A DNA stretch of 64,000 nt from Limnochordales bacterium (GTDB lineage Bacteria; Bacillota; Limnochordia; Limnochordales; ZCTH02-B6). A model generated the notes under the pieces. It was not told the origin of the DNA and did no database searches. It was given only the letters and a program-made list of their open reading frames with translations. The stretch is from positions 6,773 through 70,772 of the forward strand of contig DATGPV010000050.1 in the NCBI GenBank assembly GCA_035304545.1, given 5' to 3'. Below are positions 2,509 through 64,000 of this stretch, piece by piece; position 1 is the first letter of the stretch, and each line of letters begins with the position of its first letter. The translations under genes were made by a program, and so were the position numbers.

Positions 2509-3801
2509 TTGGACGTGCAGCCCTTCCGCGGCCTTCGCTACAACGCCGGGGCCGTCGACATGGAAGCGGTGGTGGCCCCGCCCTACGACGTCATCGACGC
2601 GGCGGAGCGGGATCGCCTGGCCGCCCGCAGCCCCTACAATATCGTTCGCGTCGACCTGGCCAATGATGGGTATGACCAGGCCGCGGCCCGCCTGGACCAG
2701 TGGCGGGCCACGGGCGTGCTGGAGCAGGAGGCCCGCCCGGCTTTTTATGCCTACCGCCAGGCCTACCGGGGACCGGCGGGCGAGGAGCTGGTGCGGTGGG
2801 GCCTCACCGGGATGGTGCGGGTCGCGGCCTACCGCGAAGGAATCGTGTTTCCCCACGAGCGCACCCTGCCCAAGCCCCGGGAAGACCGGCTCAACCTGCT
2901 GCGGGCGACCCGCACCCACTTGAGCCCCGTTTTTGGCCTCCATTTTGACGCCACCGCCAGTTTGGACGACGTGCTGGCCGGGGCGTGCCAGGGTCCGCCG
3001 GCCATCGCCATCACCGATCAGGACGGGGTTGACCACCGCCTGTGGGTGCTGACGGATCCTGACCTGCTGACGGCCGTCCGGACCGCCCTAGGCCCGGCCC
3101 GCATCGTCATCGCCGACGGCCATCACCGCTACGAAACCGCCCTCGCGTTCCGGGACGAGCAGCGCGAGCGGGTGGGCGACGACCCCGCGGCGCCCTGGAA
3201 CTACGTGATGATGGTGCTGGTGGACCTGAACTCCCGGGGCTTGACGGTGCTGGCCACCCACCGCATCCTGCGCCAGACTCCCCTGTCGGCCGCGGACTTG
3301 GTCCACCGGCTGGAGGGCGCCTTTGCCCTCGCGCCCGTCGACTTGGCGGGGCAGAACGCAGCCGGCGCGTTGCTGGCGGCCCTGGAGGCCCTGGGCCCGG
3401 AGCCGGGCTTTGCCGTCTACACCGGCGGCGGCCGGGGCTGGCTGGCCCGCCTCGCGGATCATAAGGCCTGGAACGCCGTCACCGCGGGCAAGCCCGATCC
3501 GTGGCGGGGCTTGGACGTGACGGTCCTGCACGAGCTGGCCCTGCCCCGGGCCGCCGGGCTGGATGCGGAAGCCCAAGGCTCGGGCACCTACCTGGGCTAC
3601 ACCCGGGACGCGGCGGAGGCGGTGGCGGCCGTGGACAGCGGCCAGGGGCAGGCGGCCTTCCTGGTGCGGCCGACGCCCGCGGCCGCGGTCCGGGACATCG
3701 CCCTGGCCGGCTTCAGCATGCCCCAAAAGTCCACGTACTTTTACCCCAAGCTGCTCACGGGGCTTGTGCTGGCGCCGCTGGACACCCCGGTGGGGCTTTG
3801 A
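2509..3801 (+). CDS. DUF1015 domain-containing protein
   Basis: MDVQPFRGLRYN... N-terminus and IADGHHRYETAL motif, characteristic of DUF1015. AAAGGAGTGGAG RBS. Confidence 0.75.
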   Translation: MDVQPFRGLRYNAGAVDMEAVVAPPYDVIDAAERDRLAARSPYNIVRVDLANDGYDQAAARLDQWRATGVLEQEARPAFYAYRQAYRGPAGEELVRWGLTGMVRVAAYREGIVFPHERTLPKPREDRLNLLRATRTHLSPVFGLHFDATASLDDVLAGACQGPPAIAITDQDGVDHRLWVLTDPDLLTAVRTALGPARIVIADGHHRYETALAFRDEQRERVGDDPAAPWNYVMMVLVDLNSRGLTVLATHRILRQTPLSAADLVHRLEGAFALAPVDLAGQNAAGALLAALEALGPEPGFAVYTGGGRGWLARLADHKAWNAVTAGKPDPWRGLDVTVLHELALPRAAGLDAEAQGSGTYLGYTRDAAEAVAAVDSGQGQAAFLVRPTPAAAVRDIALAGFSMPQKSTYFYPKLLTGLVLAPLDTPVGL

Positions 3802-3806
3802 TATAA

Positions 3807-5309
<1,503 letters not shown>

Positions 5310-48314: not shown

Positions 48315-50447
48315 GTGAAAGGGATGACTGCCTTGGGCCGAACCGTTCGCACCTTCCTGATCGCCTGCGTGGTGGCGGGATTGTTGCACGCCGCCGCGGA
48401 GGCGCGTTTTTTTTCCATCGAGGCGCTGGAGCCCGGTTTGCGGGGCACCGGCAAGACGGTGGTGCGGGGCACCGAGATAGAGACTTTTGAGGTGGAATAC
48501 TTGGGGGTGTTGCCCGAGGCGGGCCCCGTGGGGGACCTCATCCTTGTGCGGGTCAGCGGCGACGCCATCGACCGGGCCGGCGGCATCGCGGCGGGCATGA
48601 GCGGCAGTCCCGTCTACATCGGCGAGCAGTTGGTGGGGGCCATCGGGTACGGCTTTAATTTTGCGGACCACCGCATCGGCCTGGTCACGCCCATCCGCGA
48701 CATGCTGGCCGTGATGGAGCTGATGGACGGGGCGCGGGCCCTGGACACCGCGGCCGCGGGCGCCCAGGAGGCCCGGGCCGGGTCGTCGGACGGCGGGGCC
48801 GTCGATCTGCCCCGGCGGGCCTATCTCGCGGGCAGCGTGGCCGAAGCCGAGACCATGGCGGCGTCCTTGCCCGCGGACGTGCCGGTGTTCGCGCCGGTGC
48901 AGACGCCGGTGATGGCCAGCGGCTTCAGCCCCCGGGCCCTCCAGCGGCTGCAGAAGGGGCTGGCGCCGTTGAACCTCCGCCTCCTGCCCGTCCAGACGGG
49001 CATCGCGCCGCCCGGCGCGGACGGAGGCCAGCTGGAGCCGGGGGCGGCCATGGGCGTCCAGCTGGTCCGGGGCGATGTGAATCTGTCCGCGTTGGGGACC
49101 GTCACCTACGTCGACGATGGGCGGTTCATCGGGTTTGGCCACCCCTTCGCCAATCTGGGCACCGCCGAATTCCTGACGACCACCGCCTACATTTTCCACG
49201 TGGTGCCGTCGGTGAGCATGCCTTTCAAGCTGGGGGCGGCGGGGGCTCCCGTGGGATCGCTGCTGCAGGACCGGGGTGCGGCCGTGGGCGGGCGGCTGGG
49301 CCCGCTGCCGTACATGGTCCCCGTCAGTATTACGGTGCACGACCGGGACCGGGGCCTAGAAACGACCCGCCAGTTTTCCGTTGTCAATGATCCGCGGCTG
49401 CTGACCGACTTGACGGTGGCCGCGGCGCTGTCGGTGCTGGACCGGAGCCTGGATCGGCTGGGGCCGGGCACGGCCAAGGTGGTCTTCCAGATCCGAGGCG
49501 AAGGGCTGCCCCGTCCCCTGGTGCGGGACAACATGTACTACAGCGAGTTTGATGTGGCCGCCCTCTCCTTGGTGGAGCTCATGGAGGCCGTCAACTTGGT
49601 CGTCCACAACCGATTCGTGCCCGTCACCATCACTCGCATCCAGGTCGTGGCCGACATCCAAGAGCGGCGCTGGACGGCCCACATCGAAGAGGCCCAGCCC
49701 TCCACCACGGAGGTGCTGCCCGGGGAATCGGTGCGCATCACGGTGCGGCTGCGCCCCTACCGCGGCGAGGCCTTGACCGAGGAGCTCATCTTGACGGTGC
49801 CGGAGGACGCCAGTCCCGGCCCGGTGACGGTGGTGGTGCGGGGCGGCGGCTGGGGCCTGGAACCGCCGGTGGACGAAGAGGAGCTCCTGGAAGATCCCGA
49901 AGAACTGCTGGGCGAGAACGTCCAGGATTTGGATCGCCTGATCGAGGAGTTCGTGCGCCGGGAGCGCAACCACGAAATTGTGGCGGAGTTTTACTCCTCC
50001 CGGGAACCGTGGTCGGAGGAAACCGAGGCTGAGGACGGAGCAGACGAGGAGCCGGACAACGGGGAAGACTTCCCACCCCGGGACGCGTCTGAGGAGGACG
50101 AGGCCGCCCGCGAGGAGCCGCCTCCGTGGCACCGCGGCTACGAGCCGCCGGAGCGGGTGACGGTCTCCCAACCGACCGATTACGTGATCCTGGGGTCGGC
50201 GTCCTTTGACCTTTACATCCTGCCCGATTACACCCGCGGGCGGCCGCGGCCGGAGGAAACCGAGGACGTGACCGGCGAGGAGGAGCTCCTGCCGGGGGAG
50301 GGAGCTCCGGCGGCGGAGAGCGCCGGGGATCTCGACGAAGGGGCCGCCGCGGGCCAGGCGGGGGACGGGGCACCGGCCCCCACGGAGGAAGGCGAAGGCC
50401 CCCAGGGCGGCGGCGCGGACCCAGGGGCGGTCCCAGGTCCCAGGTAA
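48315..50447 (+). CDS. Secreted SpoIVB-like serine peptidase (S55 family) with long acidic C-terminal region
   Basis: Signal peptide, then GTEIETFEVEYLGVL...ILVRVSGDAIDRAGGIAAGMSGSPVYIGEQLVGAIGYGF. The GMSGSP serine motif matches SpoIVB. No PDZ domain recognised. The C-terminal roughly 250 aa are very rich in Glu/Asp/Pro/Gly. Start uncertain (GTG 48315 or ATG 48324). Confidence 0.75.
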   Translation: MKGMTALGRTVRTFLIACVVAGLLHAAAEARFFSIEALEPGLRGTGKTVVRGTEIETFEVEYLGVLPEAGPVGDLILVRVSGDAIDRAGGIAAGMSGSPVYIGEQLVGAIGYGFNFADHRIGLVTPIRDMLAVMELMDGARALDTAAAGAQEARAGSSDGGAVDLPRRAYLAGSVAEAETMAASLPADVPVFAPVQTPVMASGFSPRALQRLQKGLAPLNLRLLPVQTGIAPPGADGGQLEPGAAMGVQLVRGDVNLSALGTVTYVDDGRFIGFGHPFANLGTAEFLTTTAYIFHVVPSVSMPFKLGAAGAPVGSLLQDRGAAVGGRLGPLPYMVPVSITVHDRDRGLETTRQFSVVNDPRLLTDLTVAAALSVLDRSLDRLGPGTAKVVFQIRGEGLPRPLVRDNMYYSEFDVAALSLVELMEAVNLVVHNRFVPVTITRIQVVADIQERRWTAHIEEAQPSTTEVLPGESVRITVRLRPYRGEALTEELILTVPEDASPGPVTVVVRGGGWGLEPPVDEEELLEDPEELLGENVQDLDRLIEEFVRRERNHEIVAEFYSSREPWSEETEAEDGADEEPDNGEDFPPRDASEEDEAAREEPPPWHRGYEPPERVTVSQPTDYVILGSASFDLYILPDYTRGRPRPEETEDVTGEEELLPGEGAPAAESAGDLDEGAAAGQAGDGAPAPTEEGEGPQGGGADPGAVPGPR

Positions 50448-54438: not shown

Positions 54439-54563
54439 AAATGGCGATCCTGGCGGCCGGAGGGAACCTGCGCCGGGCTGTCGAAAACTGTCGCGAACGG
54501 TGCTGGGGACCGGCGGCAGGCCGGTCCGCGGTCCGGGGGGCGGGGGCCTTGGGAGGCCTCTGC

Positions 54564-55283
54564 ATGAACGGCGAGACAACTTGGATGCCCGCGCCGGTGG
54601 GCCGGCGCCGGGGCGGACCGGCGGGCAGGGCCCGCGAGCGCAAGGGCGCCTTCCCGCGGTTTCGATGCTGGCGGGCAGCCGTGGTGCTGGCGGTCGCGCT
54701 GGCGGCGGTCGCGGCCAAGGCCCCGGCAGGCCAGGCGGCCGTGATGGGGACCACGGGCCTGCTCCAGATTCCCACGGCCGACGTGTCGCCGCCAGGTGCC
54801 GGGCGCTTGGCGGCCGGGGTGGACGGGAGCGAGTTCCTTCTGTCGGTGATGGTCAGCCCGTTGCCCGGTTTGGAAGTGGGCGGGGCGGCCCGGTCGCGCG
54901 GCGCCGTCGCCCCGCAGCTCAAGTACGCGGTGGCCGCCGAAAGCGCCGGCGCCCCGGGATTCGCGGTGGGGCTGGCGGGCGACAGCTACTACGCGGTGCT
55001 CAGCCGCCGGCTGAGCAGCCCGGGCCTGCGGCTGCACCTGGGCGTGGGCGCGGGGCGCTGGGGCCCGGTGCTGGCGGGGGTGGAGGCTCGCCTCCGCTCG
55101 GTGGCGGTGACCGCTGCGGACGCCGGGCCCAGCGCCCCCGCCGTGAGCCTGCTGGTGGATTTCGACGGGCGGGCTGTGGCCCTGGGCGCGCGGCTGCAAT
55201 GGCCCGCGGGGTGGACCGCCGCGGCGGGGGTCCGGGCCGGTCACGGCCTGGTGGGCCAGGTCGCCTACGGGATCCATTTCTAA
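54564..55283 (+). CDS. Putative small outer-membrane beta-barrel protein (YjbH-like N-terminal motif)
   Basis: Signal sequence (AAVVLAVALAAVAAKAPAGQAAV), GTTGLLQIPTADV motif, alternating beta-strand-like pattern, C-terminal ...QVAYGIHF ending in Phe (OMP beta-signal). Start uncertain (ATG 54564 or 54585). Confidence 0.5.
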   Translation: MNGETTWMPAPVGRRRGGPAGRARERKGAFPRFRCWRAAVVLAVALAAVAAKAPAGQAAVMGTTGLLQIPTADVSPPGAGRLAAGVDGSEFLLSVMVSPLPGLEVGGAARSRGAVAPQLKYAVAAESAGAPGFAVGLAGDSYYAVLSRRLSSPGLRLHLGVGAGRWGPVLAGVEARLRSVAVTAADAGPSAPAVSLLVDFDGRAVALGARLQWPAGWTAAAGVRAGHGLVGQVAYGIHF

Positions 55284-55358: not shown

Positions 55359-56456
55359 TTGAGGCTGCAGTTGCTGGATCGCTATATCCTGCGGGAGTTC
55401 ATCGGGCCCTTCCTCGGCTGCGTGGCCGGTTTCTCCGTCATCTTGGTCAGCGGCCTGCTGTTTGAGCTGACGGACCTGATCCTGGTCAAGCGGGTGGAGG
55501 GGCAGGTGGTGCTGCGCATGTTGCTGTACCGCCTGCCGGGCCTCGTGGTCCTCGCGCTGCCCGTGGGGTCCTTGTTCGGCGTGCTGCTGGCCTTGGGGCG
55601 GCTGGCCCGGGACCATGAGCTGACCGTCATCCGGGGCGTCGGGGTGCCTTTTTGGCGCATCGCCATTGGCCTGGTGGCCGCCTGCCTCGCGGTGAGCGCG
55701 GCCGCCTATTGGCTCAACGAGCGGGTGGTGCCGTGGACGAATCACGCGTACCAGAACCTGGTCCGGCAGGCGGTGTTCAAGGACCCCGTGCCCACCGTCC
55801 AGGAGCAGGTCTTTTTCCGGGACGCCGACGGCAACGTCTTTTACGTGCGGCAGGTGGACACCGCCCAGTCACGGCTGGTGGACGTCATGATTTACCAGCC
55901 CGGCGGCCGCACCTTCCCCCGCCTCATCACCGCCCGGGAGGGCCTGTTCACCGAGCGCTTGTGGCACCTGCGGGACGTGGTGACCCGGGAGATCGGCGCC
56001 GACGGTTTCGTGGAGCGGGAAGTGTGGGCCGAGAGCCTGGCCTTTCCCATGACCGAGAGCACCGTGGAAGTTTTTGGCAACCAGCGCACCACCGACGAGA
56101 TGAACCGGGCGGAGCTGGCCGAGCACATCCGGCTGTTCCAGCGCAGCGGCATCGACGTGCGCCCGTTCCTCGTCGACTACCACGTCAAGCTGGCCCTGCC
56201 CTTTGCCAGCCTGGTGCTGGCCCTGTTTGCCGCCCCCTTGAGCCTGTGGGGGGGACGGCACGGCTGGGTGTTTGGGCTGGGAGCCAGCATCGGCCTGGCG
56301 TTCCTTTATTACACCTTGGCGGCGCTCTTCCGCTCCCTGGGCACCAACGGGGCGCTGCCGCCGCTGGTGGCCGCGTGGCTGGGCAACATCCTGTTTCTGG
56401 CCCTGGGCATCGTGCTGTTTGTGCGGGCCGACCGGGCGGGGCGGTCGCTGCTTTAG
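55359..56456 (+). CDS. LptF/LptG family LPS export permease (YjgP/YjgQ)
   Basis: LLDRYILREFIGPFLGCVAGFSVILV N-terminus, 3+3 TM helices around a periplasmic beta-jellyroll-sized insert, about 365 aa. Confidence 0.88.
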   Translation: MRLQLLDRYILREFIGPFLGCVAGFSVILVSGLLFELTDLILVKRVEGQVVLRMLLYRLPGLVVLALPVGSLFGVLLALGRLARDHELTVIRGVGVPFWRIAIGLVAACLAVSAAAYWLNERVVPWTNHAYQNLVRQAVFKDPVPTVQEQVFFRDADGNVFYVRQVDTAQSRLVDVMIYQPGGRTFPRLITAREGLFTERLWHLRDVVTREIGADGFVEREVWAESLAFPMTESTVEVFGNQRTTDEMNRAELAEHIRLFQRSGIDVRPFLVDYHVKLALPFASLVLALFAAPLSLWGGRHGWVFGLGASIGLAFLYYTLAALFRSLGTNGALPPLVAAWLGNILFLALGIVLFVRADRAGRSLL

Positions 56457-56496
56457 TGGCAGCCCGGGCAGACCTTGGGGCAAAGGACGTGACGGC

Positions 56497-58650
56497 TTGA
56501 ATCCTTGGGCCCGGTGGGGCGCCGCCGCGCTGGCTTGGTGGGCGGTCCTGGCTCTGTCGGCCGGGGCCCTCGCGGCGGACCCGGTGTTGGTGCAGGCCGA
56601 CGGCATCAACTCTTGGGACGGCACGGGGCTGTTTACCGCGGTGGGCAACGTGACGCTGCGCTACCGCGACGCGGTCATCACCGCGGACGCCATGCGCTAC
56701 GACGCCGAGGCGGGGACGATCCTTTTTGAAGGCAACGTCGTTTACGTCGAAGGCCAACAGGAGCTGGCCGGCGCCCGGCTGCACTATGATCTCAACACGG
56801 CCACGGCGGTTTTTGAGGACTTGGACGCCATCGTCTACGCCCAAGGGGTCCAAGGGCCCATGTTTGTGCGGGGCCAGCGGGTGGAAAGCACCTCGGACGT
56901 GGTGGTCATCCAAGGGGGATTCCTGACCACCTGCGAGTGCCAGGAGGACCGGCCGCCGGCCTATCATTTCACCGCCCGGGAAATCGAGATATACCCGGGG
57001 GACCGTCTGGTGGTCCGCGGGGTCACCTTTTACGACCACGGGGTCCCCCTTTTGTACTTGCCTTGGCTCACCTTGTCCCTGCGGGAAGACCGCAACCACT
57101 TTGACCTGCCCCAGATCGGTTACAGCGAGCGCACCGGCTGGTACATCAAGACCGCGTACAACTACGTGCTGGCATCGGGCCTCTACGGCGCCATCCTCTT
57201 GGACTGGTACCAGTACCTGGGCTTTGGCGGGGGCGTGCGCCACACGTATCTGCACGACGGGTCGGGCCGGGGGACGGTGCTGGTCTACGGCGTCGCCAAT
57301 CGCAGCGGCGGCAGCGACGGCACCTTGGAGTGGGAGCGGGAATGGAACTTGGAGCGGTGGCGGCTGGCCACCCAACTGGGCTACGACGTGTCCACGGAGC
57401 CCGGCGGCGTGAACGAGGAAGAGATCCGGGGCGAGCTGCGTTTCGAGCAGACCGCGGGCCCCGGCGCGGCCCGGGGCGATCTGGAATACCGCATCGTCAC
57501 GGGAAAGGACCCCCTGGAGCGGTTTGCCGGCAGCGTCGAGCTGCGCCGCCCGGTGGGGGCCCAGTGGGAGTTTTACGGCCGGGCCGACGGCTTTGAGCAT
57601 GACAAGCCCGATGAGCCCTTGCGCCGCTGGCTCGGGTATACGGCGGAGCTGCGGCAAGCCACCGCGGACTACACGCTGTCCATCCGGGTGCACCAGCAGG
57701 TGCACCCCGACCTGCGGGACGAGAAGAAGAGCCCCAACGTCCCCTGGACCCACGTGAGCCGCCTGCCCGAGATCACCTTGGAAACCCGGGCGGTGGCTGG
57801 GATCAGCCTGCGCGCGGGCGTGGCGCGCCTCAAGGAAGAGCCCGACGGCATCGCCGCCTGGCGGGGCGAGGCCCAGGCGCGGGCCCGCCGCAGCTGGCCG
57901 GTGGGCCAGCGGGCCGTGCTCACCTCCAGCACGTCGCTGCTGGGCCAGCTCTACAGCACTGAGGATCGGCAGCTGTCCTTCGAAAGCCGGACAGGGTTCA
58001 ACTGGCAGTTTTCCCAGCCCATGGGCCTGACGCTGCAGCACACCTATCGGGAGGCCTGGGGCCACTCGCCTTTCCGCTTTGACCGGGTGTCCCCGGCGTC
58101 TACGTTGGCGGGCCGCCTCAACTGGCGCAGCGCGGCCTTGACGGCCACCCTCAGCACCAGCTACGACCTGCTGGACCAAGAGTGGAATCCCCTCACCATC
58201 AGCGGCATCGCCCGCCTGAGCGCCAACGCGAGCCTGCGGGCGGCCGCCCAGTACGAGACGGCCGTCCGCCGCTGGCAGCGGGTGGCCGCGACCTTGGACT
58301 GGCAGCCGGCCGAGGGATGGCTGGTGCGGCTGGGCGGGCAGTACGACGTGCCGACGGCCCAGATGGAGCGCGTGGACGTCCAGTGGGAGTGGTCGGTGCG
58401 GGGGGGCTGGAAGGGCGGCCTCACCACCATCTACCACCCCGCCAATCAGACTTTCACCCGCCTGGAGGTATTTTTTGCCCACGACGCGGAGTGCCGGGAA
58501 ATCCGGTTGAGCTACGATCACGAGAGGCGGGAAGTTTGGCTCCAGTACCAGATCGCGGCCTTCCCGCTGAGCCGGGTGGCGGTGGGCGCATCCGAGGACA
58601 AGCTCTTGTTTGAGTCCGACGCCTTGTCGGAGTTCCTGGGGATCGAGTGA
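56497..58650 (+). CDS. lptD: LPS-assembly outer membrane protein LptD (OstA family)
   Basis: Signal peptide, OstA N-domain (GNVTLRYRDAVITADAMRYDAEAGTILFEGNV), then FLTTCEC...AYHFTAREIEIYPGDRLVVRGVTFYDHGVPLLYLPWL, typical of LptD, then a large barrel. Start at TTG 56497; the upstream part of ORF 56272 overlaps the lptF/G gene. Confidence 0.8.
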   Translation: MNPWARWGAAALAWWAVLALSAGALAADPVLVQADGINSWDGTGLFTAVGNVTLRYRDAVITADAMRYDAEAGTILFEGNVVYVEGQQELAGARLHYDLNTATAVFEDLDAIVYAQGVQGPMFVRGQRVESTSDVVVIQGGFLTTCECQEDRPPAYHFTAREIEIYPGDRLVVRGVTFYDHGVPLLYLPWLTLSLREDRNHFDLPQIGYSERTGWYIKTAYNYVLASGLYGAILLDWYQYLGFGGGVRHTYLHDGSGRGTVLVYGVANRSGGSDGTLEWEREWNLERWRLATQLGYDVSTEPGGVNEEEIRGELRFEQTAGPGAARGDLEYRIVTGKDPLERFAGSVELRRPVGAQWEFYGRADGFEHDKPDEPLRRWLGYTAELRQATADYTLSIRVHQQVHPDLRDEKKSPNVPWTHVSRLPEITLETRAVAGISLRAGVARLKEEPDGIAAWRGEAQARARRSWPVGQRAVLTSSTSLLGQLYSTEDRQLSFESRTGFNWQFSQPMGLTLQHTYREAWGHSPFRFDRVSPASTLAGRLNWRSAALTATLSTSYDLLDQEWNPLTISGIARLSANASLRAAAQYETAVRRWQRVAATLDWQPAEGWLVRLGGQYDVPTAQMERVDVQWEWSVRGGWKGGLTTIYHPANQTFTRLEVFFAHDAECREIRLSYDHERREVWLQYQIAAFPLSRVAVGASEDKLLFESDALSEFLGIE

Positions 58651-58704
58651 GGCGCCGCGAACCCGTTCGCCAGGGCGACGGAGGAGTTGCACCCCGTGGG
58701 GTCC

Positions 58705-59388
58705 ATGCAGGCACGCAACAGACGCTGGGTGATGGTACTGCTTTTGGCCGCCGCCGGGGCCGCCGGGATCTGGCTGGCCCGCCGGGCCGGCGGGCCGGCT
58801 GAGGCGCCGGTGCCCGTGGTGGAAGACACGCGCCCGCAGCTCACGTCCACCCGCGTCGTGGGGCGGCACCAGGGAGACCGCCAGTTCGAGTTGGAAGCCG
58901 GCGCCATCGCCGACGAGGGCGACTGGATCCGCCTGGACGCGATTGAACACGGCGTGCTCTACCGGGAAGGGGAAACGTATGTGACGTTCACGGCCCGGGA
59001 GGGCCGCTGGCACCGGCCGTCCAACGATCTTGTCCTGACCGGGGACGTGGTCCTGGTGTACGAAGGCCGCATCCGCGTCTTCAGCGACCGGCTGGAGTGG
59101 CGGGCCGAGAATGAGCTGGTGGTGTCCCCGGGACCGGTGGTGCTGGAGACCGAAGACGACGTGGTCCGGGCCGCGGCCATGGAGGCGGACCTGGGTCAGG
59201 AGGTGGTGCGCCTGCAGGGGGATGTGCGCATCGAGCGGGCCGGGGGCGGCTACATCATGATGCCGGAGGTTTTGTACTACTTGGAGGAAGAGCGGCTGGA
59301 AGGCTACGGGCCCGGGCAAGCGCTGCTTTTGCCCGGCGGACCAGCCGGCGGCGGGCCGGCGGACGGCGACCCGGCGGCCGGCCGGTAG
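58705..59388 (+). CDS. lptC: LptC-like membrane-anchored LPS transport protein
   Basis: N-terminal TM anchor (WVMVLLLAAAGAAGIWLA) followed by an OstA-like beta-jellyroll-type sequence (LTGDVVLVYEGRIRVFSDRLEWRAENELVVSPGPVVLE). Lies between lptD and lptA. Confidence 0.6.
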   Translation: MQARNRRWVMVLLLAAAGAAGIWLARRAGGPAEAPVPVVEDTRPQLTSTRVVGRHQGDRQFELEAGAIADEGDWIRLDAIEHGVLYREGETYVTFTAREGRWHRPSNDLVLTGDVVLVYEGRIRVFSDRLEWRAENELVVSPGPVVLETEDDVVRAAAMEADLGQEVVRLQGDVRIERAGGGYIMMPEVLYYLEEERLEGYGPGQALLLPGGPAGGGPADGDPAAGR

Positions 59389-59433
59389 ACAGGCGATGGG
59401 CTCCATGGGCCCCGCAGGGAGGGTGTGCAAACG

Positions 59434-60135
59434 GTGGCAACCAGGTGGCGCAAGGCGTGGGGTCCCGTGCTGGTGGCGGTCCTTTTGTGGGCAGCGGCCG
59501 CCGGCCTGGCGCAGGCGCAGGGCGCGAGCGAGAAAGCGGGGGAAACCGGCGGCTCGCGGGAACCGGTCTTCCTGGACATTTTGGATGAGGACGCCCTGCT
59601 CTTGGTGACCCGCAGCGAGGGGCGGGATGTGGTGCGGGTCCTGGGCCGCAGCCAGGTGCGGCACAAGCGGCGCACCGTGTGGTTCGACCAGATGGAATAC
59701 CATGAAGACGCGAACTGGGCTGTCCTCACGGGCGCGGTGCAGCTCGTGGACGAGGGCGAAGATCCGCTGCACCTGACTGCGGATTACATGGAGCTGGACC
59801 TGGACTCGGAAACTGCTTTCGCGCGGGGCAACGTGCAGTTTGTCCAGGAAGCAGCCGAGGGCAGCTCCGACGTGCTCCACTACGGCGAGTACAGCCGCCT
59901 GCAGCCGTTCATACAGGAGGAGCTGGCGGCCCGCCAGGCCGCGCCCGCGGCGCTGGAGGCGGCCCTGGCCCAGTTCCGGCCCGATGATGCGGTCTTGATC
60001 CTTATCGGCAACGTGCAGATGTACGACGGCGACCGGGAGTTTGCCGCCGAGTTCGTCGTGTACAACATCCGCACGGAATCCCTCGTGTCGGTGGGCCGCA
60101 GCGCCGCCCGGCTGCCCGGGCCCCAGGACGACTAA
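59434..60135 (+). CDS. lptA: LptA-like periplasmic LPS transport protein (OstA N-terminal domain)
   Basis: Cleavable signal (AVLLWAAAAGLAQAQG), LTGAVQLVDEGEDPLHLTADYMELDLDSETAFARGNVQFV. Start GTG 59434 (better RBS spacing) or 59425. Confidence 0.65.
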   Translation: MATRWRKAWGPVLVAVLLWAAAAGLAQAQGASEKAGETGGSREPVFLDILDEDALLLVTRSEGRDVVRVLGRSQVRHKRRTVWFDQMEYHEDANWAVLTGAVQLVDEGEDPLHLTADYMELDLDSETAFARGNVQFVQEAAEGSSDVLHYGEYSRLQPFIQEELAARQAAPAALEAALAQFRPDDAVLILIGNVQMYDGDREFAAEFVVYNIRTESLVSVGRSAARLPGPQDD

Positions 60136-60260: not shown

Positions 60261-60269
60261 TGTTATAAT
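60261..60269 (+). promoter_or_regulatory. Extended -10 promoter element TGTTATAAT upstream of the ABC module / lpxC
   Basis: TGTTATAAT at 60261-60269, about 85 nt before ATG 60355. No convincing -35. Confidence 0.4.
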
Positions 60270-60354: not shown

Positions 60355-62529
60355 ATGTCCCTGTTTCGCGACGCCTTTTGGCGGGAATATGCCTTGGTGG
60401 TGCTGATGACCATCCTGCTGGGCGCGGGCGGCGCCGCTGCCGGGGCCAGCGCGTTGGACGCGGCCTTGGGCGACGCGGCCCGGGGCCTTTTGGGAGAAGC
60501 CGGCCAGTACCACCTCATCGTGCACGTGCGCCAGGGCTACCGGGCAGCCGCCGCCCGGGAACTGGAGCGGCTCATGGCCGCCCACGGGCCCGCCGCCGTC
60601 CTCCACGAGGGGGTTACCGTGGCCGGCAACGCCAACTTTTTCCTGGCCCTGCCCCCGGAACAGGTGCGCCAACCGGTGCTGGAGGAGCTGGTGGCCCGGC
60701 TGGGGGAAGTGCCTGGCTTCAACGGCTACACGTGGCTCCTGGAGCCGAGCCTGACCGTGAGCGGCCTGCGGCCGGGCGTGCAGGCGCTGGTGGCCCGGGA
60801 GGCCGCAGCCTTGGCGGGCGTCCGCCTGGCGGTGCGCCACGGGTCCAGCGTGACGGTGCTGTTGGAGAGCCTAAACCACCAGCGGCCGGTGGCGGCCGCT
60901 CTCAAAGCCCTGGTGGAAGGGCGCCAAGTGGCCGAAGTGCGCTGGCCCGGCCGCGGGGAAGGGGACCCGGCCTCCGTGGTGGCCGCGGTCCGGGCCGCCC
61001 TGGGCCCGGAGTTTCTCGCCGATGTGACGTCTCCCGACGAGGCGGGGGAAACGCGGCAAGCCCTGGCGGCCTTGCGGGACTGGCTGGCGGGGCTGGCGGC
61101 CCGGGTGCAAGTCACGCCGGGGCCCGGGGCATCCCCGCTGGCGGCCGGGGAACGGGTGGTGCTGCAAGGCCCGGCTCCCGCGCCGCCGGAGCCCGGTCAG
61201 CCTCCGGAACCGCAGCATCTCATCGTGGAGATGGCGGCCGCGGAAGACGGGGAGTTGGTGGGCCGCATCGTCCACGGCGATTTTCCCCCGCCCGGGGCTG
61301 AGCCCGGGAACGGGGCCGAAGGTGAGCTCGGTCAAGGGGGCCTTGGGGCTGGTGCCCGGCCGGCGGGCACGGCCTTTCGCCTGGTGGACGGGGTCGTGGG
61401 GCCGCCGGTGGGTGAAGCCGTGCTGGTCAGTCCCCGCTGGGCCTTGGCCGCCGGCGGCGGGCCGGATCCGGCGGCCGGACAGTCGTGGGACCAGTTGGTG
61501 CAGGCCGCCCGGGAGGCCGCGGAGCAGCTGGCGGCCGTGGTGGACCTGTTGGCGCCGGCCGCCGCCAGCGCCGACACGGGCCAGCAGGCCCAGCGGCTGG
61601 CCCGCGCGCTGCGGGCCGGCGACGGCGCGTCCGCGGTGCGGGAGGCGCTGTTGGGAGTGGTCCTCACGGCTCTGCTGCGGGCCGGGCAGGCAAGCGGTGA
61701 CGATCCTGGGGTGGAGCCGGCGGAGGCGGGCCATCCGGCGGGCGGCGACGGTGCCGGCGACCGGGCCGGTGTTGCGGCGCAGCTGGCGGCGCTGCACCAG
61801 AGCCTGACCCGGCTGGCGGAAGCCGCCGAGGGGCTCCAGGAGGCCGCGGGCCAGGGGGGCTTGGCGGCCGTCTTTGACATCCAGGGCCGGCTTCTGCAGC
61901 TGCGGGACGATGAGCTCACGCGCCTGTGGCAGGCGGTGGAAGGGGCCGCCGGGGGACCCGCCGCGGGACAGCGGGTGGAGCTCCTGGTGAGCGGGAGCGT
62001 GCCCGCGGCCCGGCTGGAGCAGGTGGTGCGGCAAGCGGCCGGCGAGGAGGCGGTGGTGATCATCACCGCCGCGGGCGTCGTCGCGCCCAGCCCCCGCGCC
62101 TTGGTGCTGGAGCTGCTCCAGGATGTGCGCCGGTCCGTCGCAGGTTTGGGGGCCTTGCTGGCAGCCGCGGCGGCCCTGGTGCTGGACCACGCTACGGTGC
62201 TGGCGGCCCTGGGCCGGTTGGGCTGCTCCCGGCGGGCAGTGGCCGCCGTGGGCGCGGGCTTGGGCGTCCTGCTGCTGGGCGGCATCTACGGCTTGAGCGG
62301 TGCCGCGATCCCGGGGGCCGGGCCGGGGGTGGTGGCGGCGGCCGGCGCCGGGCTGGGCGTGGCCGTCGCGCTGTTGGCCGAGCGGCTGAGTCCCGTCCGG
62401 CCCGACGAAATCATGGCGGGCCAGGCCCTCGGCCTTTCCGACGGTCAGATCTTGCGGGAGATCGTGGTGCCCGTGGGCCGGCCGGGGCTTTTGTCCCTGG
62501 TCAACCGCTGGCGGCGGCAATTCCGGTGA
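60355..62529 (+). CDS. Unknown 724-aa membrane protein: N-terminal TM, about 560-aa Ala/Gly/Glu/Leu-rich ectodomain, 3 C-terminal TMs and C-terminal EAA-type ABC coupling motif
   Basis: TM1 is ALVVLMTILLGAGGAAAGA. The C-terminal block from residue 594 has three hydrophobic helices, then DEIMAGQALGLSDGQILREIVVPVGRPGLLSLVN. That segment matches the EAA loop of polar-amino-acid ABC permeases (EAAxALGxSxxQxFxxVxLPxAxRxxLPxLxN). The protein stops 6 residues after the motif, so the usual last two TMs are absent. Confidence 0.6.
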   Translation: MSLFRDAFWREYALVVLMTILLGAGGAAAGASALDAALGDAARGLLGEAGQYHLIVHVRQGYRAAAARELERLMAAHGPAAVLHEGVTVAGNANFFLALPPEQVRQPVLEELVARLGEVPGFNGYTWLLEPSLTVSGLRPGVQALVAREAAALAGVRLAVRHGSSVTVLLESLNHQRPVAAALKALVEGRQVAEVRWPGRGEGDPASVVAAVRAALGPEFLADVTSPDEAGETRQALAALRDWLAGLAARVQVTPGPGASPLAAGERVVLQGPAPAPPEPGQPPEPQHLIVEMAAAEDGELVGRIVHGDFPPPGAEPGNGAEGELGQGGLGAGARPAGTAFRLVDGVVGPPVGEAVLVSPRWALAAGGGPDPAAGQSWDQLVQAAREAAEQLAAVVDLLAPAAASADTGQQAQRLARALRAGDGASAVREALLGVVLTALLRAGQASGDDPGVEPAEAGHPAGGDGAGDRAGVAAQLAALHQSLTRLAEAAEGLQEAAGQGGLAAVFDIQGRLLQLRDDELTRLWQAVEGAAGGPAAGQRVELLVSGSVPAARLEQVVRQAAGEEAVVIITAAGVVAPSPRALVLELLQDVRRSVAGLGALLAAAAALVLDHATVLAALGRLGCSRRAVAAVGAGLGVLLLGGIYGLSGAAIPGAGPGVVAAAGAGLGVAVALLAERLSPVRPDEIMAGQALGLSDGQILREIVVPVGRPGLLSLVNRWRRQFR

Positions 62530-62548
62530 GGAGTCGGGGAGGCAGGCC

Positions 62549-63280
62549 GTGCTGCTGCACGTGGATCGGGTTCAGAAACGCTACGGGCCGCGGGTGGCCT
62601 TGGCCGGGGTGAGCCTCACCGTCGCGCCCGGCGAGACCGTGGTGGTCATGGGCCCCAGCGGGTGCGGCAAGTCGACGCTCTTGCGCTGCATCAACCGCCT
62701 CACGGACTGGGACGCGGGCGAGATCTACTTCGCCGGGAAACCCATCGGGCCCATGGACGGCGCGGCGGTGCGGGCCCTGCGCCGCCAAATGGGCTTTGTG
62801 TTTCAGCATTTCCACCTCATCGAACGCCTCACCGTGTTGGACAACGTCCTCCTGGGCCTTGTCCTGGGCGGCATGCCCCGGGACGAGGCCGAGGAGCGGG
62901 CCCGGGCCGCTTTGGCCCGGGTGCACCTCGCGGGCGAGGAGGCGCGGCGGCCCGCGGAGCTGTCAGGCGGGCAGCGCCAGCGGGTGGCCATTGCCCGCGC
63001 CCTCGCGCTGGACCCGCCCCTCATGCTGTGGGATGAGCCCACCGCCGCCCTGGATCCCATCCTGGTGGCGGAAGTGCTGGAGGTCATGGAAGATCTGGCC
63101 CGCAGCAAGAGCACCGGCATGCTGGTGGTGACCCACGAGGTGGGGTTCGCGCTGCGGGCCGCGGACCGGGTGGTGCTCCTGGAGGAGGGCGCCGTGGTGG
63201 ACGAAGGCCCGCCTGAACAGGTCTTCGGCCGGCCCAGGACCGCCCTGGCCCAGCGCTACGCGCGCCTATTGGCGTCCTAA
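62549..63280 (+). CDS. ABC transporter ATP-binding protein, polar-amino-acid (GlnQ/HisP/ArtP)-type
   Basis: GPSGCGKSTLLRCINRL Walker A, FVFQHFHLIERLTVLDNV Q-loop, LSGGQRQRVAIARAL, LMLWDEPTAALDP, VVTHEVGFA. All catalytic motifs are intact. It lacks the LptB-type motifs GPNGAGKTT / LSGGERRR / DHN. Confidence 0.93.
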   Translation: MLLHVDRVQKRYGPRVALAGVSLTVAPGETVVVMGPSGCGKSTLLRCINRLTDWDAGEIYFAGKPIGPMDGAAVRALRRQMGFVFQHFHLIERLTVLDNVLLGLVLGGMPRDEAEERARAALARVHLAGEEARRPAELSGGQRQRVAIARALALDPPLMLWDEPTAALDPILVAEVLEVMEDLARSKSTGMLVVTHEVGFALRAADRVVLLEEGAVVDEGPPEQVFGRPRTALAQRYARLLAS

Positions 63281-63399: not shown

Positions 63400-64000
63400 A
63401 TGGCGTGGCAGACCACCCTGGGCAAGCCGGTTTCCTTGACGGGGACGGGGCTGCACAGCGGCAAGCCCTGCCGCCTGACGCTGCAGCCGGCGCCAGCGGG
63501 GACAGGGCTCGTCTGGCAGCGGGTGGATTTGGACGGCTGGCCCCAGATCCCGGCCACCGTGGACCACGTGGCCGGCACCGAACGGGCGACCACCCTGGCC
63601 CAGGGCGAGGCCCGGGTGCAGACGGTGGAACACGTCTTGGCGGCCTTGGCCGGCATGGGCGTGGACAACGCCGTGCTGCAGGTAGATGCTGCCGAGCCTC
63701 CCTTGGCCGATGGGGCCGCCGCGGCCTTCGTGGACCTGGTGCGGGAGGCGGGCGTGGTGGCGCTGGACGTGCCCCGGCGGGTGCGGCGGGTGACCCGCCC
63801 GGTGGCGGTTTCCCGGGGTGACGCCCACATCGTGGCCTTGCCCGCGGATCGGCTGCGGATTGCCAGCGTCTTCGTCTCGGACCACCCGGCCTTGGGGACC
63901 CAGTTTGCCGAGTACACCATAGATGCCGACACCTTTGCCGCGGAGATCGCGCCGGCCCGCACCGTGGGCTGGCTGGAGGAAGTGGAGGCCCTGCGGCGGC
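63400..64000 (+). CDS. lpxC: UDP-3-O-acyl-N-acetylglucosamine deacetylase (5' part; continues past window end)
   Basis: Own translation from ATG 63400: MAWQTTLGKPVSLTGTGLHSGKPCRLTLQPAPAGTGLVWQRVDL...TVEHVLAALAGMGVDNAVLQVDAAEPPLADGAAAAFVDLV, collinear with the LpxC N-domain. GGAAGGAG RBS. Not in the ORF track (no stop in window). Confidence 0.93.
   Translation, partial: MAWQTTLGKPVSLTGTGLHSGKPCRLTLQPAPAGTGLVWQRVDLDGWPQIPATVDHVAGTERATTLAQGEARVQTVEHVLAALAGMGVDNAVLQVDAAEPPLADGAAAAFVDLVREAGVVALDVPRRVRRVTRPVAVSRGDAHIVALPADRLRIASVFVSDHPALGTQFAEYTIDADTFAAEIAPARTVGWLEEVEALRR

Follow-up and report, generated by a model that had tools for sequence, protein, structure and literature searches.

The outer-membrane gene cluster of a Limnochordales bacterium (contig DATGPV010000050.1) holds two closely spaced genes between an lptA-like gene and lpxC, and together they raise a question. 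What is an ATPase of the amino-acid importer type, paired with a membrane protein that seems to have lost part of its membrane domain, doing among genes for the synthesis and transport of lipopolysaccharide (LPS)? The first gene, here called X, is an open reading frame (ORF) on the plus strand at 60355-62529 that encodes the membrane subunit, a protein of 724 residues. The second, at 62549-63280 on the same strand, encodes a partner ATP-binding cassette (ABC) ATPase of 243 residues and GlnQ/HisP type. Positions refer to the window, which is the whole stretch of 64,000 nucleotides that was analysed. The two ORFs are separated by 19 bp, each has a purine-rich ribosome-binding site, and the GC3 of X (0.88) gives it the codon-position GC signature of a genuine gene. 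The original prediction for this locus offered two explanations: a decaying amino-acid importer, or a module that passes ATPase motion to a large extracytoplasmic domain in the manner of FtsEX, MacB and LolCDE. Comparisons of sequence and gene order indicate that the pair adds a new architectural variant to the ABC superfamily and a new, conserved component to the LPS cluster of diderm Firmicutes, whose function we infer below.

Conservation of the X-ATPase pair in LPS gene clusters

A profile search across 1.84 billion representative proteins (clusters at 50% identity) recovered 205 representative homologues of X at E <= 1e-3 and 127 at E <= 1e-30, or about 200 clusters. The closest are encoded by Limnochordales metagenome-assembled genomes (MAGs), and full-length members of approximately 570-900 residues come from both low-GC and high-GC organisms. 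The family has a common tail, SPV...E..AG.ALGL....IMREIVIP.GRPGLL..LNRR, which resembles the EAA coupling loop of importer permeases. A hydrophobic segment follows this EAA-like motif in none of 211 full-length members, and the median tail beyond it is 14 residues. The absence of the two transmembrane helices (TMs) that seem to be missing from X is therefore a defining trait of the family. If X were simply a deletion derivative, homologues with a full 5-TM domain would be expected, and there is none among the 211. Neither Pfam nor NCBIfam has a model for the family. Public records from Sporomusa, Pelosinus, Dendrosporobacter, Anaerospora and Veillonellales MAGs call its members hypothetical, and the occasional labels given to others are spurious.

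The gene for X is tightly linked to that for its ATPase. We collected 68 loci from species-representative genomes using an alignment of the X C-terminus, and in all 68 tblastn places an ATPase of 50-82% identity directly 3' of X. In 65 of these loci an ORF scan shows the ORF with the Walker A motif beginning between -34 and +184 bp from the X stop codon, and overlaps of 4 bp are frequent. Six members of the family (932-996 residues) are natural X::ATPase fusions in which an ABC_tran domain follows the tail at the C-terminus. One of these fusions (P0107) is encoded in the gene order lptFG, LptD-like gene, lptC, lptA, fusion, lpxC, fabZ, lpxA.

The ATPase in the window is a complete GlnQ/HisP-type protein, as first read from the sequence. 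Its Walker A, Q-loop, LSGGQ, Walker B and H-loop motifs are intact (GPSGCGKST, FQHF, LSGGQRQR, LMLWDEPTAALD and VVTHE, respectively), and it matches ABC_tran (PF00005) at E 4.8e-38. Among E. coli proteins, GlnQ is 45% identical to it, HisP 44%, MetN 40% and LptB 33% (104-109 bits). The best NCBIfam models are GlnQ, TcyN, EhuA and PhnC, with GlnQ on top at 230 bits, which lies under the equivalog cut-off. Taken with the conservation of the truncation and the tail in about 200 clusters from deep lineages of Bacillota, and with the natural fusions, these intact motifs contradict the idea of an importer in decay.

The 68 loci come from Limnochordales, Selenomonadales, Pelosinus, Halonatronum saccharophilum (Halanaerobiales), Hydrogenispora and many unclassified Bacillota MAGs. 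lpxC lies directly 3' of the ATPase gene in 57 of them, at a distance of 46-338 bp, and is usually followed by fabZ and lpxA. Two of the other 11 loci reach the end of the available DNA, and the remaining nine have lptB downstream and lptFG, an LptD-like gene and lptC upstream. The Halonatronum locus reads lptFG, a gene for an outer-membrane protein, lptC, an lptA-like gene, X, ATPase, lpxC, fabZ, lpxA, lpxI, a 383-residue ORF that is lpxB by position, and msbA. In Pelosinus, the genes 5' of X and the ATPase gene are skp (found by tblastn), an lpxD-like ORF and two small ORFs, and the ORFs 3' of the ATPase correspond in position and size to lpxC, fabZ, lpxA and msbA. Another clade has X, ATPase, lpxC, fabZ and lpxA (the last two by tblastn), lpxI, a 182-residue ORF, lptA, an LptB-like ATPase and lptFG. 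Three of the most divergent X members sit in the same LPS cluster. The X-ATPase pair is thus beside lpt or lpx genes essentially everywhere that it was found, which bears out the suspected link to envelope genes, and it is a conserved member of the LPS cluster in every diderm Firmicute lineage sampled. No Pfam-detectable binding-protein gene appears among the annotated flanking genes of seven loci.

The closeness of lpxC invites a regulatory explanation, in which the periplasmic domain of X would sense the state of LPS or the envelope and the ABC motor would signal to or control the LpxC step, by analogy with the control of LpxC by YejM and LapB-FtsH in E. coli or with flux-sensing modules of the BceAB type. 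The tightest linkage in the cluster is indeed X-ATPase-lpxC, at the distances given above, X has no recognisable translocation pathway, and LapB/YejM-type control of LpxC goes unmentioned in those parts of the diderm Firmicute envelope literature that were available, where it was not sought by name. Set against this, the pair adjoins lptB rather than lpxC in nine loci, there is no conserved signalling domain or partner kinase nearby, and ATP-hydrolysing ABC motors normally produce work; the reading is also inferential throughout. We regard a regulator or sensor as unlikely.

The location of the pair also suggested that it stands in the place of lptB, and this description holds for location only. 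A further explanation takes it literally: the ATPase would be the LptB of this lineage, powering LptF/G, and X would be an accessory. The sole ABC ATPase match in the window is the partner of X, with no LptB-like ATPase elsewhere in it, and the Limnochordales-type operon has no other; in a Limnochordales relative (L076) the whole lpt-lpx operon is likewise without lptB and msbA. However, 38 of the 68 loci contain, alongside the pair, a second ATPase with 50-58% identity to E. coli LptB and scores of up to 292 bits, in many cases directly 5' of lptFG, and one LptB fragment cut by the end of its locus has 74% identity. The X partner ATPases in related loci are only about 30-35% identical to E. 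coli LptB, which argues that the pair is not the Lpt motor. The top 25 NCBIfam models for the ATPase in the window do not include LptB; GlnQ, TcyN and PhnC rank best. The natural fusions are to X and not to LptF/G. Compared with LptB2FG(C) itself, the pair shares a gene neighbourhood (lptFG, lptC and lptA) and the setting of an ABC system in the LPS pathway, but X lacks an LptF_LptG domain, its partner is no orthologue of LptB, and a true LptB coexists with the pair in many relatives. We consider it very improbable that the ATPase is the lineage's LptB.

Architecture of X and its C-terminal coupling loop

We modelled the X monomer with AlphaFold2 from a 78-sequence alignment. The model has a predicted local distance difference test score (pLDDT) of 81.5 and a predicted template modelling score of 0.58; an earlier model had a pLDDT of 68. 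Hydropathy maxima at residues 13-31, 601-619, 629-647 and 657-675 agree with four long helices in the model (7-46, 580-621, 626-648 and 657-678), the last three of which are TM2-TM4 with pLDDT of about 95. Both analyses confirm the arrangement first proposed for X, with one N-terminal TM, an ectodomain of approximately 545 residues, three further TMs and a cytoplasmic tail. Charge distribution places the N-terminus, the Arg-rich loop between TM2 and TM3, and the C-terminal tail in the cytoplasm, which fits a topology with both termini inside (N-in/C-in) and the ectodomain outside. TM1 (60388-60456, approximately residues 12-34) lies within helix 7-46, which reaches into the periplasm with pLDDT > 88. 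TM2-TM4 are encoded at 62128-62388 (approximately residues 592-678), as placed by hydropathy and AlphaFold. TM1 and TM2 are modelled as 40-residue helices that project from the membrane. An Asp in the middle of TM2, D611, is invariant throughout the family and is usually followed by His (D611-H612 in X, 62185-62190) and sometimes by Gln; a buried polar pair of this kind suggests a functional site within the membrane.

The ectodomain begins with a base of three to four ferredoxin/ACT-like beta-alpha-beta modules (60493-61023, residues 47-223). Such modules had been read from the early ectodomain sequence, and the model agrees, with pLDDT > 90 over residues 54-198 and for the beta-alpha-beta units across residues 54-223 as a whole. 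The base is the best-conserved part of the ectodomain, for example in VTVAGNANF and PGFNGYTWLLEPSLTVSG. It is followed by a variable, beta-rich insert (61102-61428, residues 250-358), which is missing from the shorter members of about 570-620 residues; two of these (P0008 and P0009) are without the corresponding alignment columns. A long helical, coiled-coil-like region (61432-61947, residues 360-531) varies in length and sequence, is modelled with low confidence at residues 401-471, and gives nothing but coiled-coil noise matches in a Pfam scan. The ectodomain closes with a membrane-proximal beta-alpha-beta-beta unit (61972-62088, residues 540-578), from which the invariant residues G574, P578 and R581 lead into TM2. 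Outside the tail, conservation is highest in the ectodomain base and at the junctions between ectodomain and TMs (G47, G121, E130, P131, G574, P578 and R581). The invariant junction residues, G47 together with the three just named, link the TM1 and TM2 helices to the beta-alpha-beta units.

Searches with the ectodomain identify no relative beyond this general fold. Full-length X has no match in Pfam or NCBIfam. Foldseek searches of the Protein Data Bank (PDB) with both X models found nothing at E <= 1e-3 and only generic ferredoxin/ACT folds below that level, the best match being the tandem ACT domains of aspartokinase (probability 0.96, E 0.027, not significant). There is no substrate-binding protein among the top 50 matches listed for each Foldseek search of the PDB, and no MacB, FtsX or LolC chain among the matches listed for the X models. 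A profile of the ectodomain base compared with PDB sequences returned designed ferredoxin proteins and no substrate-binding protein. These results accord with the first reading of the sequence, in which no motifs of type-2 binding proteins were seen. In the models the X ectodomain combines modules of the ferredoxin type with a beta domain and long helices. It is probably not a substrate-binding protein, although the evidence on this point is weaker than that from the truncation and the synteny.

The cytoplasmic tail (62389-62529, residues 679-724) carries an EAA-type loop, SPVrpdEimAGqaLGLsdgqIlREIVVPvGRPGLLslvNRwRR, and then the stop codon. AlphaFold predicts three short cytoplasmic helices after TM4 and no further TM. 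The consensus EAA-x3-G-x9-I-x-LP corresponds to M687-A688-G689, G693 and I703-V704-V705-P706, and X ends 18 residues past P706; the early observation that the protein stops directly after the loop, without the two TMs that follow it in importers, extends to the whole family. We used a profile of 100 non-redundant X C-terminal domains as an hhalign query against permeases of E. coli K-12. It matched the EAA loops of MetI, GlnP, HisM, HisQ, PotB and PotC in register with probabilities of 59-83% (E 9e-6 to 9e-5), those of MetI, GlnP, HisM and PotC reaching 77-83%. The same profile gave probabilities of at most 1.7% for LolC/LolE and at most 1.5% for MlaE. With the C-terminal 146 residues of X as the query, the Pfam domain BPD_transp_1 matches weakly (E 0.006) and covers the last TM and the tail. 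It is also the sole recurrent membrane-domain match in a set of 51 diverse members, where it is found in 16 (best E 2.7e-4), and FtsX and MacB_PCD match none of the 51. In a search of PDB sequences with the C-terminal profile, the membrane proteins ranked highest were PotC and ArtQ, aligned in register with marginal scores. We attribute the loop to the EAA type because several independent searches agree. The tail had been described as matching the EAA loop almost position by position; the register holds, but the conserved Glu lies two residues early.

Comparison with type I importers (GlnPQ, HisQMP, ArtQN, MetNI and PotBC; BPD_transp_1) shows how far the likeness goes. X and these permeases have a common EAA loop in register (A688, G693, I703, V705 and P706), the TM before the X loop aligns to the Pfam profile, and the nucleotide-binding domain (NBD) of the X partner is of importer type. 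However, only three TMs of X precede the loop and none follows it, so that it is two short of an importer core, which has at least five TMs. X also scores under the Pfam threshold, has its Glu shifted by two residues, comes with no binding protein that we could find, carries an unrelated ectodomain of about 545 residues and is encoded in an LPS cluster. With an incomplete core, no binding protein and a sub-threshold Pfam score, X fails three defining features of an ordinary binding-protein-dependent importer. The closest importer layout is that of GlnPQ with fused substrate-binding domains in Lactococcus and other Firmicutes, in which a signal anchor, extracytoplasmic domains and the permease form one chain that works with a GlnQ-type ATPase. 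X has the same chain layout, but its permease part is shortened, and no type-2 binding-protein fold is among the Foldseek matches listed.

The pair could nonetheless be read as a GlnPQ-like importer with fused binding domains, ordinary or decaying, or as a pseudogene, in keeping with its GlnQ-like ATPase, its EAA loop and one JGI record in which a homologue is called 'ABC-type amino acid transport system permease subunit'. The truncation in 211 of 211 members and the strict LPS-cluster synteny across deep lineages speak against this, as do the strongly conserved tail and ectodomain base and the lack of a binding-protein motif or of a binding-protein fold among the listed matches. Amino-acid import by the X pair is unlikely, and we give the whole reading hardly any credence.

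A proposed periplasm-directed mechanism

ABC systems of type VII (MacB, FtsEX, LolCDE and BceAB) provide a parallel to the topology of X. X has the same N-in/C-in topology and, if it is presumed to dimerize, the same eight TMs per dimer. Both have helices that continue beyond the membrane and beta-alpha-beta modules beside it. In contrast, X has no sequence or profile similarity to these proteins, and its partner NBD is of importer type. The coupling elements also differ: the C-terminal EAA loop would fill this role in X, whereas type VII systems use a coupling helix between TM2 and TM3, where X has a loop of about 8 residues. The proposed likeness to FtsEX, MacB and LolCDE consequently survives as an analogy of topology, and homology was not detectable by hhalign or in the Pfam search of 51 members. 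By the same analogy, work carried out in the periplasm is plausible for X.

We think it somewhat probable that X and its ATPase form an importer-derived, periplasm-directed mechanotransducer or extractor complex that acts in LPS or outer-membrane biogenesis. In diderm Bacillota, such a complex would span the cytoplasmic membrane as an X2-ATPase2 assembly, with 8 TM helices in all. It would descend from a type I importer of the polar-amino-acid kind, of which it retains only the GlnQ-like motor, the EAA loop and the three core helices in front of that loop. The X tail would dock in the groove of the NBD, and the ATPase dimer, as it closes and opens with ATP, would move the EAA helix at the C-terminus together with the TM helices that extend into the periplasm. 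This motion would arrive at the conserved ferredoxin-like base of the large periplasmic domain, where it would drive mechanotransmission, the extracytoplasmic work being to push, extract or remodel a component of LPS or outer-membrane biogenesis. Since two helices are absent family-wide and no binding protein was found, ATPase motion is most likely relayed to the periplasmic domain. The mechanotransmission alternative of the original prediction is the best available explanation, in that architecture and synteny fit it, but it is still an inference.

Several points weigh against this explanation. An 8-TM dimer with an intramembrane Asp-His pair could hold a lipid substrate, and LolCDE and MacB manage with 8 TMs; with that precedent, extraction or transport is not separable from pure mechanotransmission. 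The proposed role in LPS biology comes from gene neighbourhood alone. The AlphaFold models are of monomers, and the complex is proposed from sequence and gene order. Individual matches to the EAA loop are below threshold (16.7 bits in Pfam against a cut-off of 26.4, and E 0.3-1 in the PDB search), and the eponymous Glu is shifted two residues early, to E685. Finally, the ectodomain has no significant structural match and hence gives no hint of a ligand.

The first of these points can be developed into an explanation of its own, in which a lipid-anchored molecule leaves the outer leaflet through a lateral cavity of the 8-TM dimer and is passed on to the periplasmic domain, much as in LolCDE or LptB2FG. 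Candidate cargoes would be LPS or a lipid A precursor, a phospholipid, or a lipoprotein. This reading overlaps with the mechanotransducer or extractor complex described above and differs mainly in having a substrate enter the membrane domain. It draws on a TM count and topology like those of LolCDE and MacB, on the conserved polar pair D611-H612 in TM2 and the long periplasmic helices, and on the Lol system, which is reported as absent from Negativicutes in the portions available of two studies (PMC5007114 and PMC13018214). It sits less well with MsbA and LptB2FG, which are already encoded in the same clusters, and X has no homology to any extractor transmembrane domain. Halanaerobiales are also listed as carrying Lol in the accessible part of one source (PMC5007114), yet the Halonatronum locus, the one Halanaerobiales locus examined, has the pair. 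An extractor or exporter of this kind seems to us rather unlikely, if worth keeping in mind.

The surrounding locus and the meaning of the pair

The pair was proposed to lie behind its own promoter element. An extended -10-like sequence, TGTTATAAT, is present on the plus strand at 60261-60269, 86 nt 5' of the X ATG. The motif TGNTATAAT has 3 sites in the window against 0.05 expected, a 60-fold excess (412-420 on the minus strand, and 3799-3807 and 60261-60269 on the plus strand). Such an excess in a window of about 72% GC suggests that the organism really uses promoters of this type. A scan detected neither a -35 hexamer nor a terminator. The element is thus present and overrepresented, and a predicted promoter for the X pair at 60261-60269 is plausible but unproven.

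The end of the window is an outer-membrane and LPS cluster with a GC content of about 70-78%. Its genes run along the plus strand in the order mreB, flagellar rod and L/P-ring genes, a gene for a SpoIVB-like peptidase, bamA, skp, lpxD, lptF/G, an LptD-like ORF, lptC, an lptA-like gene, X, ATPase and lpxC. The 710-residue peptidase protein (48315-50447) has an S55 domain of the SpoIVB type and lies between the flagellar ring genes and bamA, within the outer-membrane cluster. Between lpxD and lptF/G, a Gly/Ala-rich ORF of 280 residues (54441-55283) may be a candidate for a small outer-membrane beta-barrel. A YjbH-domain protein is included in the table of outer-membrane proteins of Acetonema, in the portion of that study available (PMC13018214).

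The window has a single lptF/G gene (plus strand, 55359-56456), as is reported for Negativicutes and Acetonema, which implies a homodimeric permease. A large ORF (56272-58650) between lptF/G and lptC, with a start probably near 56500 and a product of about 720-790 residues, is kept at this position in relatives (716-887 residues) and has only a faint LptD_N match in Pfam. It is probably an atypical LptD of the kind reported for diderm Firmicutes. lptC (plus strand, 58687-59388) is the upstream neighbour in the Limnochordales-type lineage and is followed by the lptA-like gene (plus strand, 59425-60135), which has LptD_N/OstA_2 and LptA matches, all under the curated cut-offs. Downstream of the pair, an incomplete lpxC with a start read from the sequence runs on the plus strand from 63401 to the window end at 64000.

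Some of the related loci have features of their own. In Halonatronum saccharophilum (locus L045, 4200-5930), the gene in the lptA position encodes a 576-residue protein that combines LptD_N, OstA_2 and LptC-like domains, and this protein may represent a periplasmic bridge that has been extended or fused. In a metagenome locus (L079), LptF/G is fused to a DUF3769 domain in a protein of 1086 residues. The full Firmicute-type LPS cluster context also appears in two loci (L060 and L061) from MAGs labelled Bacteroidota and Patescibacteria, both from PRJNA950955, and these contigs are probably mis-binned or mislabelled.

The outer-membrane cluster of diderm Firmicutes has been catalogued repeatedly, and we compared the pair with the accessible portions of four publications: an eLife study of 2016 including its gene table (PMC5007114), an outer-membrane proteome of V. 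parvula (PMC5491611), a study of Mla in V. parvula (PMC10665443) and a 2026 study of Acetonema (PMC13018214). As far as their text is searchable, the X-ATPase pair is unmentioned in these cluster studies, and it is not in the gene columns of the eLife table. Within those limits it appears to be undescribed in the literature. We also considered whether X is the 'COG4372/DUF3084' gene of Antunes et al. and rejected this, since no member of the X family matches DUF3084 and DUF3084 is encoded separately in locus L079.

Diderm Firmicutes (Negativicutes, Halanaerobiales and Limnochordia) are a key test case for how the outer membrane was built early and then lost, and Lpt, Bam, Mla and Lol have all been reported as reduced or absent in their lineages. 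A conserved ATP-driven module flanked by lptA (or lpxD) and lpxC offers a concrete candidate, open to genetic tests, for a step missing from LPS or outer-membrane biogenesis in these lineages. If the explanation proposed here is correct, an importer membrane domain has been cut down to its coupling loop and joined to a giant ectodomain, in an arrangement that would be convergent with type VII systems and of independent origin. More tentatively, it is possible that the X-ATPase pair is an unrecognised ancestral component of LPS and outer-membrane assembly in diderm Firmicutes, with a new ABC architecture and probably essential for outer-membrane biogenesis. In that case a 4-TM subunit derived from a type I importer and bearing a C-terminal EAA loop would drive a periplasm-spanning domain, and the pair would supply a function that seems to be absent in its canonical form, such as assistance to an Lpt bridge that lacks LptE, control of LpxC, or extraction independent of Lol.

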